A DNA stretch of 64,000 bases from Octopus sinensis (taxonomy: Eukaryota). The stretch is taken from contig NC_043008.1 in NCBI RefSeq assembly GCF_006345805.1, forward strand, positions 21,142,001-21,206,000, read 5' to 3'. Below are positions 7,220 to 49,850 of the stretch, one piece after another. A model generated the notes under the pieces. The model was not told the origin of the DNA and did no database searches. It saw only the letters and a list, made by a program, of their open reading frames with translations. Position numbers and translations under genes: made by a program. The first letter of the stretch is position 1, and each line of letters starts with the position of its first letter.

Positions 7220-7590
7220 TATACAAAAAATTTATAATTACGAGTATAATTATAATTAGGGTTCAGCAAAATTTGCTTCACAACATACCGAAATTTAGAA
7301 ATAGCAGTTAAAAACTACTATGTTATTACTATAAGATATCTCCCAGACCGCAACTACTATTTTACTACTATATATCTTATAGTAGTAAAATAGTAGGTTT
7401 TAACTGCTATTTCTAAATTTCGGTATGTTGTGAAGCAAATTTTGCTGAACCCTAATTATAATTATACTCATAATTATAAAATTTTTGTATAAGTTTACCT
7501 ATAATGGTTCTTTTAATATACCGAACTACTTGGTAAAATTATTAATTATTAATTATTAATCAATTAATTAATTTTACCCTTTATTGTTAT
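7220..7590 (+). mobile_element. Fold-back element in (TA)n, probably Penelope-like non-autonomous
   Basis: ~120-bp inverted arms 7220-7339 / 7372-7491, then a unique ~100-nt tail; (TA)n on both sides. Confidence 0.6.
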
Positions 7591-7612
7591 TATATATATA
7601 CATATATATGTA

Positions 7613-7841
7613 TTAACCCTTTTGTTACCAACCCGGCTGAAACCGGCTCTGGCTCTATTGTACAAATGTCTTGTTTTCTTATGGTTTCAATTAAAATCTT
7701 CCACCAAACCTTAGTCACAATTTATGTTCCTAATACAAGCTGAATGATAACTAAGTTATTTTACTAAATTCTTTGTTATATTTAAAGTAATTGAAAGAAA
7801 CACAGAACATCTCAAAATAAATACAGTAACGAAAGGGTTAA
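7613..7841 (+). mobile_element. piggyBac-type MITE
   Basis: TTAA|CCCTTTTGTTAC ... GTAACGAAAGGG|TTAA; second copy in opposite orientation at about 54163-54379. Confidence 0.9.
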
Positions 7842-7994
7842 GTCTACCATTGGTTTCATGTTAAGAAAAATATCTTACTATCTTAATTTTTCAAGCTGAT
7901 CACATGGAGGAATGGTGGTTGTCTCCATTTTAGATGAAAACACAAAACGCCTCATGAAATGCCTCGGAATTTCACAAAAGGTTCATATATACAG

Positions 7995-8215
7995 ATGAGG
8001 CTGTGCTGAAAAGTTCCTGCCTTTGGATAAAAGTAAATACAGGAGGATCAGTTAATTATGATTTTATTAAACATATTTCCCTCTCAGATTCACATACCTA
8101 TTGCAGCGGTCCTTCAGTTTTTCTAAGGCCTGTAAAAAAACTCGGAAGGTTGGGTCTCCAACTTGGCCTTTTGTAAAAACCTTTAAAGCCAGGAACTTTT
8201 CAGCAACCCCTCGTA
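7995..8215. mobile_element. mariner-type MITE
   Basis: TIRs TGAGGCTGTGCTGAAAAGTTCCTG / CAGGAACTTTTCAGCAACCCCTCG followed by TA. Confidence 0.8.
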
Positions 8216-8319
8216 TATATATATATATATATAATCTTGGCACATTGTAAATCTTTAAGACATTTTTATTTTTCCACCTAAGATGTATTCAGTTTTATAA
8301 AATTCATTGTATTTTTATG

Positions 8320-8663
8320 AGAACTAGGACTAGTGCATGCATATACAGCTGCGTGCATGCACACATACACGCGGGTACTGTCCAAATCTCTGACCAATCA
8401 CATACAGCTAGCTGGCATTCAATTGGTGTATCAAGTTTCAGGCATTTTGATTGGGTTTTGGATAGAAAATTTACAAAAAAGTCACTTCTATTGATTTTTT
8501 AATGGCTTTGCTGGGTGACTGGGGAAATGTAAAGATGTGCACGACCACCCTTGGACGGTTTTGAATGACCATAGAAAGTGCGAGCCCTCTAACTGAAAAA
8601 GTCTAGATTTGTATAAAGGACACACACACAGACAGACATTTTGCCATTTATATATATAGAGAT
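8320..8663 (+). mobile_element. Non-autonomous Helitron/Helentron (DINE/HINE)-like repeat
   Basis: ACTAG start; 3' end with (CA)n-CAGACAGAC microsatellite and TTTATATATATAGAGAT, typical of HINE-like elements. Confidence 0.45.
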
Positions 8664-46263: not shown

Positions 46264-46770
46264 AAGATCTGCAATTGGGGATATTAGTACTTTCTGGTTT
46301 GTCAAGAAATGAAGGAAGGATCAGAACGAAAAGTATATGCGTTTGGTAGTTCCATGATCAAAGAGATGATAATGTTATAGGTAAGGTCCATTAGTGGTTT
46401 CATATCAGAATACTTGATGATAATCCATGACAAGGAATATTAGAAGTTACCAGTTCCGTTATCATTTGCCTTGGATTATCATTGAATTTTCCCCTACGGA
46501 ACTGCTAATGGACTTTATCTTTTTACCTATAACTTTATGAATTCTTTGATCATGGAACCACCAAACACTAATACTTTCCATTCTGATACTTCCTTCATTT
46601 CTTGGCAAACTGGAAAGTACTGATATTCTTGAATGACGATATTCTTCATTTCTATATTTTCTGGCTTCTCTCTCTCTCTCTCCAGTGATGAAATACCTAG
46701 CTTATGTAATCCTTACTCAATATCATGATCCACATGCTTGGCTATTCAAGAAACTGGTGTAAGAGTCTCT
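46262..46770 (+). mobile_element. Old fold-back element with possible decayed hammerhead
   Basis: Diverged ~175-bp inverted arms spanning 46262-46650; downstream CTCT..GTGATGAA...GAAACTGGTGTA-AGAG. Confidence 0.55.
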
Positions 46771-46799
46771 ATCCTTTTATCATAACTACCCTGCACAAC

Positions 46800-47316
46800 T
46801 CTCTTTTACTCTCTTTTACTATTTTACTTGTTTCAGTCATTTGACTGTGGCCATGCTGGAGCACCGCCTTTAGTCAAGCAAATCGACTCCGGGACTTATT
46901 CTTTGTAAGCCCAGTACTTATTCTATCGGTCTCTTTTGCCGAACCGCTAAGTGACAGGGATGTAAACACACCAGCATTGGTTGTCAAGCAATGCTAGAGG
47001 GACAAACACAGACACACAAACATACATATATATGACAGGCTTCTTTCAGTTTTCGTCTACCAAATCCACTCACAAGGCTTTGGTCGGCCTGAGGCTATAG
47101 TAGAAGACACTCGCCCAAGGTGCCACGCAGTGGGACTGAACCCGGAACCATGTGGTTGGTAAGCAAGCTACTTACCACCCTGCCACTCGAGTTCAAATTC
47201 TGCTAGGGTCAACTATACCTTTCATCCTTTTGGAGTTGATAAAATAAGTACCAGTTGGACGCTGGGGAACCATGTGGCTGGTTAGTAAGCTACTTACCAC
47301 ACAGCCACTCCTGCGC
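46800..47316 (-). mobile_element. SINE family A with family B fragment and duplicated 5' end
   Basis: Full A copy 46800-47190, B fragment 47190-47265, second A head 47265-47316. Confidence 0.85.
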
Positions 47317-47497
47317 CGTTTACATCCTCTATATAAAATATTTTTCAAGTGATGGCAAATGTTTTGCTTTTTCGTTTTCTATTTTAATCTGTATCCACCT
47401 TTGATGGGCAGTTTTAGTTTTCAGTTGCAGTTCAAACTGGAGTTCCAATGATAAACCAAACTGAGCAGTCTTAGTACATACCTATTACATTAAGTCA

Positions 47498-48205
47498 GAT
47501 GTGGTAAGTAGCTTGCTGGGTGGAGACACATGGCCTAGTGGTTAGAGCAGCGGACTCGCGGTCGAGGGATCGTGGGTTCGAATCTCAGACCGGACGATGT
47601 GTGCGTTTATGAGCAGAACACCGGCGGAAGGTAATGGCGAAACTTCTGCTGACTCTTTCGCCATGACTTTCTCTCACTCTTTCCTCCTGCATCTTGCAGA
47701 TGGACCGGCTTCCCATCCAGGTGGGGAACCTATACACCAAGAAACCGGGAAACCGGCCCTTATGAGCCAGGCATGGCTCGAGAAGGAAGAAACAGCAACA
47801 AAGTAGCTCGCTTATGAACCACATAGTTCTGAGTTCAGTCCCACTGCGTGACACCTTGGGCAAGTGTCTTCTACTATAGCCTTGGGATGACCAAAGCCTT
47901 GTGAGTGGATTTGGTAGACGGAAACTGAAAGAAGCCCATCATATATATGTATATATATGTGCATATGTGTGTATGTATATGTTTGTGTGTTTGTGTTTGT
48001 TCCCCCCCCCCAACATCGCTTGACAACTGATGCTGGTGTGTTTACGTCCCTGTAACTTAGCGGTTCAGCAAAAGAGGCCGATAGAATAAGTACTAGGCTT
48101 ACAAAGAATAAGTGCTGGGATCGATTTGCTCGACTAAAGGCGGTGCTCCAGCATGGCCATAGTCAAATGACTGAAACAAGTAAAAGAGAGTAAAAGAGTA
48201 AAATA
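47498..48205 (+). mobile_element. SINE family A with nested family D SINE (47518-47800)
   Basis: TSD AAGTAGCTTGCT (47506-47517) / AAGTAGCTCGCT (47801-47812). Confidence 0.9.
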
Positions 48206-49319
48206 GAAGTCTTGCTAGCAAAGAAAGTAGTTTCAAAAATTCAGCAAGAATTACAATGCATAGACTATAGTTATTCCATTGAAAAGAATTATGAATTATA
48301 TTTCTCATGGTGCCTGTATTTTATTTTTTGCCTTTTCATACAGTTCTATTTTGCTTTTTTTCATTGGAACCATTTTGTAAAAATAAATTTTAGATCAGTT
48401 TGTTGAAGCCGTTTAGAAAAGATGAGATAAAAAAAAAACACTGATTAGTCTTAGGGAGAGATTTGTATGAAAGCAGATTTTTTTGTTCTCCTCATAACCA
48501 ATCAAGCATCATAATTTTGTGATCATATTCTGTTATTGTTTCTAAGTATCCTGAAATAGTTCTTATATAGCTTTTGCATGCTATACTTTTATTGGAATGT
48601 TATATGAATGGTTATTGTAATAGCTCTCTTTTTAAATGAAAATTGCATCTTCCTACGCGAATTTATGCTATATCAGAATATCTGATTCAAAAGACTAAAT
48701 AGAATTTTCACTAATTCTTAAATATCTATTTAAAAAATTGTCTGTAATGTAAAATGCTTCATAAATATTTGTAAAAGACACATAATGTTTCTGATTAGTT
48801 TGGAAGTTTTAAAAATATTTTAATTTTCTGAAGAACAATATTAAAAAAAAAAAAGGGAATGATAAAAAAATTTTTAATCAAAATATTATTGTTGAGTGTG
48901 TTTAAGCCTGTTTTATATTTTGGAGTGCAGGATATGAAGTCTATTGAATAGCAGACATAACTGATAAACCAATACAAATGGGAGACAGTTTAATAGTGGA
49001 AGAGAGAGAGAACTTTTAAAAATTCACATTGCAACATATTCTTTATCAAAGATATGAAAGACAGGGAAAGCAAAACAAAACAACAACAACAACAAAAAAT
49101 ATAAAAAGAGCAATAAATTTCATTATCTGTGTCTCATTAACTTTTCAGCAACTAATTTGTTGTAATGTCTTTAAAAACTTCCGAATTAGACTAAAAGCAT
49201 TTTCTTTCCAGCAGTGTGTGGTGTTTATGTTTCTTTTGAACAAATTTGAGCAGTACAAAAGTATCATTCTCTGAGGAAAAGGAAAACATTGATATTAAAC
49301 TAAAACAATTTTATTTAAA

Positions 49320-49850
49320 GCAGTTGTATACTGTCAATTTAATGTGACAGTCCCATAAAGGGAATCACACCACCACTATTTAGCCCTAGGAAGCATCAAC
49401 ACTTCCTGTCGGCCTTGACACATTCCCTGTGTCCTTATGTTTACAAATGGGGAGACAGGCACCCCCATCCAGCTAAGCCTGCATCCAGAGACATCAGTCT
49501 GGAGTAGCATGGCCTGCTCGCTGAAGATACCTGTCTAGACTTTGTAAAGATATGTATATATAATTTCAGTGAAGTAAATTCACTGATCACAAAAAATAGA
49601 AATATTAAATTTCTAAATATCTCAGAGAGATATAAGCAATGGTGGAACGATAGAGCAGTTGTATACTGCCAACTTAACGTGACAGTCCCATAAAGCTAAT
49701 CACACCACCACTATTTAGCCCTAGGAAGCATCAATGCTTCCTGTCAGCCTCGACACATTTCCTGTCTCCTTATGTTTACAAAGGGGAGACAAGCACCCCC
49801 CCCCCCATCCAGCTAAGCCTGCATCCAGATATTTAGAAATTTAATATTTC
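49320..49850 (-). repeat. Two direct copies (~170 bp) of a structured motif; second copy enclosed by a 24-bp perfect inverted repeat
   Basis: Copies 49320-49489 and 49655-49829; IR GAAATATTAAATTTCTAAATATCT at 49599-49622 / 49827-49850. Confidence 0.8.

Follow-up and report, generated by a model that had tools for sequence, protein, structure and literature searches.

How did six DNA fold-backs within one stretch of the Octopus sinensis genome come to share a single layout? The window analysed here comprises 64,000 nucleotides (contig NC_043008.1, positions 21,142,001 to 21,206,000; positions below are those of the window). A preliminary description had read its fold-backs, hereafter E1 to E6, as a diverse set of non-autonomous hairpin RNAs mobilised by Penelope-like elements (PLEs). 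We found that the hairpins represent six abundant families of mobile repeats, one copy of each, and that their architecture is the published footprint of PLE insertion, an inverted end plus a tail, mostly known and not one new class. Our preferred reading, to which we give a probability of about 0.62, is that the six families were inserted by PLE proteins, that each end of the cut target primed a cDNA, from preferred start sites that differ, and that these cDNAs were joined head to head.

Self-alignment of the window recovered five long fold-backs and one with a 30-bp arm, at the positions of the preliminary description:

7220-7339/7372-7491: E1 arms, 96% identity
12292-12500/12523-12730: E2 arms, 90% identity
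20895-21062/21189-21356: E3 arms, 89% identity
31416-31585/31617-31787: E4 arms, 91% identity
46258-46433/46466-46649: E5 arms, 76% identity
49593-49622/49827-49856: E6 arms, only 30 bp

The arms diverge by 4-24% with transitions favoured, which argues against read chimeras and agrees with the earlier view of old, genuine hairpins. The E2 arm differences had been attributed mostly to CpG transitions; they are indeed mainly transitions (16 of 21), but those at consensus CpG, though enriched, form a minority (8 of 21, with 8 of 18 CpG positions altered). The loop in E1, E2, E4 and E5 is part of the tail-less arm. With one filter, 54 comparable low-copy fold-backs were counted in 1.0 Mb outside the window (80 regularly spaced stretches totalling 0.8 Mb, and 0.2 Mb of adjoining DNA) versus five in the 64-kb window. 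This corresponds to about one per 18 kb in a genome of 2.72 Gb, and the window is typical because the sampled genome has a similar density. (TA)n adjoins an arm end in 29 of the 54 sampled fold-backs, against a background of 19%.

Genome searches gave 222-4,737 first-look candidate copies per element. Among 255 mapped copies, drawn mostly from best-hit searches and not at random, 57 were inverted and 198 had a single orientation, so the hairpin is not the unit of these families. E1, E2, E3 and E6 are non-coding head-to-tail monomers of 562, 311, 356 and 353 nt, respectively, with a longest ATG frame of 56 aa. Consensus comparison found no homology among the E1, E2 and E3/E6 monomers, as expected of largely dissimilar elements, but E3 and E6 are 60% identical and colinear over the whole unit (score 157 versus a shuffled maximum of 33). 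Likewise, a non-autonomous nature suits these four families and not E4 and E5, which run 5′ into GIY-YIG-coding PLE remnants.

The mapped ends carry the argument. All 57 mixed-orientation copies are head to head, the 5′ ends of the hammerhead- or tRNA-sense strand being joined. Each scored family (E1, E2, E3, E4 and E6) has two preferred 3′ ends, sites A and B, 46-142 nt apart. The 52 scored inversions in these five families comprise 32 A+B pairs (a share inflated by the searches, as discussed below), one A+A, no B+B, 18 pairs of one site with another position and one using neither. Five inversions found incidentally in the loci of other families, and free of query bias, were all A+B. The A arm reaches further 5′ in 13 of the 32 A+B copies and the B arm in 15, with four ties. 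Since either arm can reach further, we infer two separately RNA-templated cDNAs joined head to head; neither arm is a plain copy of the other, because the tail-less arm extends further 5′ than the tailed one in 13 of the 28 untied cases.

Flanking DNA was TA-rich at 134 of 275 3′ ends against a background of 8%, which bears out the proposed (TA)n targeting except in E5 (2/27). Preferred 3′ ends with a tail, head-to-head inversion and, weakly in E5, (TA)n targets are the insertion features of endonuclease-containing (EN+) PLEs. An absence of target-site duplications (TSDs) had been anticipated. Instead, duplications of 7-12 bp directly flank about 6-7 of 41 copies with non-simple flanks, E6 in the window has one of 12 bp, and a shared flank word of at least 7 nt was present in 13 of the 41 copies versus 19 of 500 in the background.

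The link to PLEs is most direct for E4 and E5, whose parts in the window are:

31160-31583, minus strand: E4 sense piece, putative 3′ non-coding end of a Hydra-clade PLE, with a fixed 3′ end at (TA)n
31377-31424, minus strand: E4 hammerhead variant, core CCGAUGA, palindromic helix III
31585-31787, plus strand: E4 inverted piece whose outer end, atypically for the family, falls in the hammerhead core
46258-46460, minus strand: E5 inverted piece
46454-46796, plus strand: E5 sense piece, putative 3′ non-coding end of a second Hydra-type PLE
near 46676-46770: E5 decayed hammerhead with a long stem II
47318-47407, plus strand: E5 distal tail, parted from the body by a later insertion

Judged by homology, both are 5′-truncated 3′ ends of GIY-YIG-coding Hydra-clade PLEs. 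Copies of E4 extend 5′ into a thumb region, a CxCX5C linker and a GIY-YIG domain (L315 and other loci), and its full-length relatives harbor RWR/RWK, DKT and CxCX5C and lack CCHH. A reverse transcriptase (RT) with RWK and DKT was seen in the relatives P0002 and P0048 and in the sister family L364. These longer relatives came from a full HMMER search, whereas a word-indexed search with the E4 thumb fragment found none. Among 20 E5 loci, L095 alone extends into a GIY-YIG remnant, which is 56% identical to that of E4; the intervening sequence is common to other E5 copies. A C-terminal GIY-YIG with CxCX5C and without CCHH, upstream of a terminal repeat, thus places both with the Hydra clade, E5 by that single copy. 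The core CCGAUGA (U4C) recurs in 18 of 28 E4 pattern matches. The genome also encodes open reading frames (ORFs) of 700-900 aa of both Hydra and Neptune-like types, the Neptune-like frames having 775-781 aa, and one fetched Hydra-type family combines RT, endonuclease, a long 3′ region, a hammerhead and a (TA)n end.

Several other PLE loci of this genome were recorded. In L364:1-2000 (minus strand) and L365:400-1600, a Hydra-type PLE has tandem repeats of ~135 nt after the stop codon, then a hammerhead with a long stem II and, ~550 nt beyond it, a fixed end at (TA)n. A young Neptune-like PLE with a 781-aa frame lies between 1.65-kb direct repeats that are 99% identical (L195:1-1653 and 5934-7591) and was likely active recently. 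A 1.7-kb inverted repeat with 98.9% identity around a GIY-YIG match (L205:3605-7451) is likely a large recent PLE inversion. Copies of E1 and E3 beside PLE ORFs (in L163 and L193, respectively) were considered as terminal repeats and rejected, each being an independent (TA)n-flanked insertion.

The course of E4 and E5 into GIY-YIG-coding PLEs, and the PLE-type ends of the scored families, support the earlier proposal that the hairpins likely arose through the PLE pathway. A PLE protein, predicted to be a dimer, cuts and extends both strands of its target and has two internal start sites, which explains the genomic tail (PMC11167929). In our preferred reading, an RT-endonuclease dimer would cut AT-rich DNA on both strands, and both nicked strands would prime cDNA at sites A and B on a multimeric or circular RNA. 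The two cDNA 3′ ends would then anneal by microhomology and join head to head. Hammerheads may process some of the templates without setting the outer ends, and E1, E2, E3 and E6 would be mobilised in trans. Several observations weigh against this scheme. In vitro, the start site was not seen to differ between the strands (PMC11167929), and later central deletions could shift the loop between the arms. The searches favour long copies, and the E1, E4 and E6 queries often forced one end, which inflates the A+B count; five E5 inversions lie outside the site scoring. As to the parent elements, the RT of E4's own parent is unseen, the fetched E4 copy being truncated at the thumb. The E1 tail aligns on a Neptune-like hammerhead with a z of 2.6-3.3, no stronger than unrelated pairs. 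Finally, the 3′ regions of 12 PLEs gave no terminal-repeat match to E2, E3 or E6; the expected sharing of tails with autonomous PLEs was recovered as GIY-YIG-coding remnants for E4 and E5.

PLE insertion could also have formed each hairpin out of a single cDNA that folded back to copy itself, or that primed its own synthesis on an antisense template, central deletions having later obscured the loop; we regard this as possible and rather unlikely. Self-priming on an antisense template was proposed in PMC3846280 for the same inverted-plus-tail layout (here and below, PMC3846280, PMC8557442, PMC7229834, PMC4209133 and PMC13282606 are cited for the portions of their text that were available). Head-to-head polarity is compatible with such an origin, the arms are closer to each other than to other copies in 38 of 45 cases, and, of the 44 inner ends in E3/E6 inversions, 4 are no more than 3 nt from the predicted hammerhead cut (0.9 expected, P about 0.01; two matches that were query-length artefacts are left out). 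However, shared arm variants are also expected from one source RNA, and the private 5′ sequence of the tail-less arm in those 13 of 28 copies, sometimes 400-580 nt long (L029, L347 and L349), would need large one-sided deletions.

The preliminary description favoured hairpin RNAs in which ribozyme cleavage determines the points of inversion. In the window itself the inverted copies of E3 and E4 do end in hammerheads (at 21327 and 31378), site A of E1 sits just before a hammerhead-like motif and the E6 junction falls at a cut site. Family-wide, however, outer ends of inverted copies fall inside the hammerhead in 1 of 28 E3, 0 of 14 E6 and 1 of 14 E4 cases, and these two of 56 are the window E3 and E4 themselves; for all ends, the count is 7 of 161. 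As breakpoints set by the ribozyme thus fail for the outer ends of E3, E4 and E6, as most copies are not hairpins and as E2 obeys the two-site rule without a detected hammerhead, we consider this form of the proposal improbable. Rfam returned no hammerhead in the window or in eight family loci, a result that is uninformative since it misses clear descriptor matches, including those of E3/E6. Less probable still, to the point of being very hard to sustain, is an origin as miniature inverted-repeat transposable elements (MITEs), fold-back DNA transposons or assembly chimeras. Such an origin would suit the long inverted arms, the TA-rich flanks and the short duplications that some copies have, but the junctions vary from copy to copy, fixed terminal inverted repeats are lacking, most copies are uninverted, the monomers are tandem and permuted, and the arms show the transition-biased divergence described above. 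The family maps therefore uphold the earlier exclusion of MITEs.

With two-ended PLE insertion as the preferred reading, we examined what each non-coding family carries. E3 and E6 were resolved as follows:

20895-21062, minus strand: E3 inverted piece whose outer end, atypically for the family, lies within the hammerhead
21060-21387, plus strand: E3 sense piece, a ~355-nt retrozyme monomer
about 21063-21175: E3 multi-hairpin domain in common with E6
21327-21369, plus strand: E3 type I hammerhead, palindromic helix III, predicted cut after 21364
49316-49829, minus strand: E6 sense piece, 1.5 retrozyme monomers, ending at site A
49827-49850, plus strand: E6 short inverted piece, ending at site B
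49306-49317 and 49850-49861: E6 12-bp target duplication

Both fit the definition of retrozymes without long terminal repeats (non-LTR retrozymes), with a tandem monomer of 150-400 nt, no ORF and a type I hammerhead with palindromic helix III, and are predicted to self-cleave. In 25 of 26 matches helix III of E6 is a palindrome (CTAG, CATG or CGCG), which is what the dimeric hammerheads of PMC4209133 would lead one to expect. The circular monomers of E3 and E6 are predicted to fold compactly (z of -6.5 and -7.5), and the joint predicted fold of the two consensuses includes 18 two-sided and 13 one-sided changes among 73 pairs. The four-hairpin motif that had been noticed as cargo in two elements is present in both and is not a separate cargo; it reflects common ancestry, because the monomers are homologous over the full unit. 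The start of E6, first placed at 49555, was corrected to 49316, which makes the element a 1.5-mer. The piece begins precisely where the hammerhead would be cut, and 22 nt near 49489 are missing from the hammerhead inside it. As 55 of 80 E3/E6 pieces span the cut site (a query-biased count), most templates were likely uncut or circular.

E1 belongs to the 562-nt tandem monomer family:

7220-7358, minus strand: E1 inverted piece, ending at site A by (TA)n
7372-7600, plus strand: E1 sense piece and tail, ending at site B
7492-7540, plus strand: E1 degenerate hammerhead-like motif, family core CCGAUAA...GAAC, failing the C3-G8 pair and A15.1

The motif is family-wide, with CCGAUAA in 24 of 45 pattern matches and GAAC in 25 of 26, and site A sits just before it throughout the family, as the inverted copy in the window had suggested. 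Its layout is retrozyme-like and its core is not that of a canonical hammerhead. The predicted fold is a long rod (circular z -9.1; -7.9 for one natural copy), far more stable in sense than in antisense. A diverged E1-like subfamily, 70-86% identical to the consensus (L297:472-830, L078:1985-2470 and L242:8771-9355), also occurs as inverted pairs that end close to sites A and B.

E2 carries the tRNA-like cargo reported for one element:

12228-12501, minus strand: E2 inverted piece and tail, site B, with a decayed mirror copy of the tRNA-like fold
12486-12730, plus strand: E2 sense piece, ending at site A before (TA)/(TG)n
12558-12636, plus strand: E2 tRNA-like cloverleaf, consensus anticodon CGT, followed by a T6-T8 run

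The tRNA-Met call in the window copy likely reflects CpG decay of the consensus CGT (Thr) anticodon. Rfam found a tRNA alone in loci L032 and L042, and a relaxed hammerhead descriptor found none on either strand of the circular consensus, which folds no better than shuffles (z -1.3). Covariation in the cloverleaf of 16 copies did not rise above that of shuffles and gives no sign of selection on the fold. With tRNA-derived short interspersed nuclear elements (SINEs), E2 has in common a tRNA-like cloverleaf with A/B-box-like sequence. Unlike these, its starts are scattered round the monomer, its pieces read through the cloverleaf and the T run behind it, and its copies are permuted, up to 1.57 units long and bounded by PLE-type ends. 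Pieces starting at the tRNA 5′ end numbered 0 in 12 extra loci and 1 of 23 single-orientation copies; neither a start at the tRNA head nor Pol III read-through characterizes the family. E2 is not a standard SINE. Viral contigs gave no match to a 20-nt E2 motif. A tentative and rather doubtful suggestion is that PLE proteins would mobilise E2 as a tandem or circular RNA of retrozyme type whose tRNA-like domain stands in for the hammerhead, host RNase P or Z and then a tRNA ligase cutting and circularising the monomers.

Beyond the six families, strict hammerhead matches numbered 10 in the 1.0-Mb sample versus 0 in three shuffles. Several more hammerhead families occur in this sample, some with a stem II of 40-60 nt, two with a U3-A8 core variant and three inside fold-backs (L242:9055, L243:1959, L249:9277, L250:8646, L266:8210/8639, L278:3353, L280:606, L282:4525 and L287:3715). 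The window also holds a 184-bp high-copy SINE-like repeat as head-to-tail dimers (25125-25494 and 38311-38678), a minisatellite with a 17-bp unit in ~21 copies (63544-63906), and fragments at 17562-18199 (plus strand) and 51934-53445 (minus strand) that we take to resemble RT C-termini of non-LTR retrotransposons. Two open frames at 5654-6474 (minus strand) resemble coding exons. Pfam gave no match for them or for any of eight candidate window frames, and assembled contigs of two RNA runs (a guessed choice), which cannot show ends, level or editing, left the candidate frames at 5861-6427 uncovered.

With candidate copies in the hundreds to thousands, short non-coding families offer a countable record of PLE insertion. 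If it holds genome-wide, one start site per arm would support two-ended priming by a dimeric enzyme. If the proposed reading of E2 is true as well, the families would record in nature how a two-ended PLE insertion complex works, and a tRNA-like, ribozyme-less E2 would broaden the range of PLE-mobilised sequences. Genomic fold-backs are also possible double-stranded RNA substrates in the octopus, which belongs to a group of animals known for heavy A-to-I editing.

Among the matches listed by our literature searches, with Repbase/Dfam and subscription papers outside their scope, there was no one-site-per-arm rule, no cephalopod retrozyme and no tRNA-like monomer with PLE-type ends. The one-site-per-arm rule is new in this sense, the pairing counted here not being found in the available text of PMC3846280 or PMC8557442, and a tRNA-like E2 without a detected ribozyme appears new. 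The formation of tandem and inverted PLE insertions is still called undefined in PMC8557442. The main text of the 2026 octopus repeat annotation (PMC13282606), in its available part, leaves ribozymes unmentioned, as that of PMC7229834 does the octopus. A PLE origin of vertebrate retrozymes has been argued in a preprint that covers 31 vertebrates, 3 insects and 1 anthozoan, with no cephalopod mentioned (bioRxiv 10.64898/2026.07.22.740005).

Compared with known systems, E3 and E6 resemble the metazoan non-LTR retrozymes in their ~355-nt head-to-tail monomers, type I hammerhead, palindromic helix III, absence of an ORF and compact fold, mussel monomers measuring 350-390 bp (PMC7229834). E1 differs from these in its longer monomer of 562 nt and non-canonical core, and E2 in that no hammerhead was found. 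The E4 core CCGAUGA is not among the variants in the available text of PMC4209133. As in the Hydra-clade PLEs of PMC8557442, which are marked by RWR/RWK, DKT and CxCX5C, the E4 parent has a C-terminal GIY-YIG, a CxCX5C linker, no CCHH and (TA)n insertion, and the E4 relatives have RWR/RWK and DKT; the 3′ non-coding region of E4, in contrast, exceeds 1 kb. With EN+ PLEs in general (PMC3846280, PMC8557442), the families have in common 5′ truncation, partial tandems, a head-to-head inverted 5′ copy, a tail at one end, (TA)n targets, an optional TSD of 8-10 bp and a hammerhead in the terminal repeat, while the tails measure 30-40 nt in those elements and 46-142 nt here.

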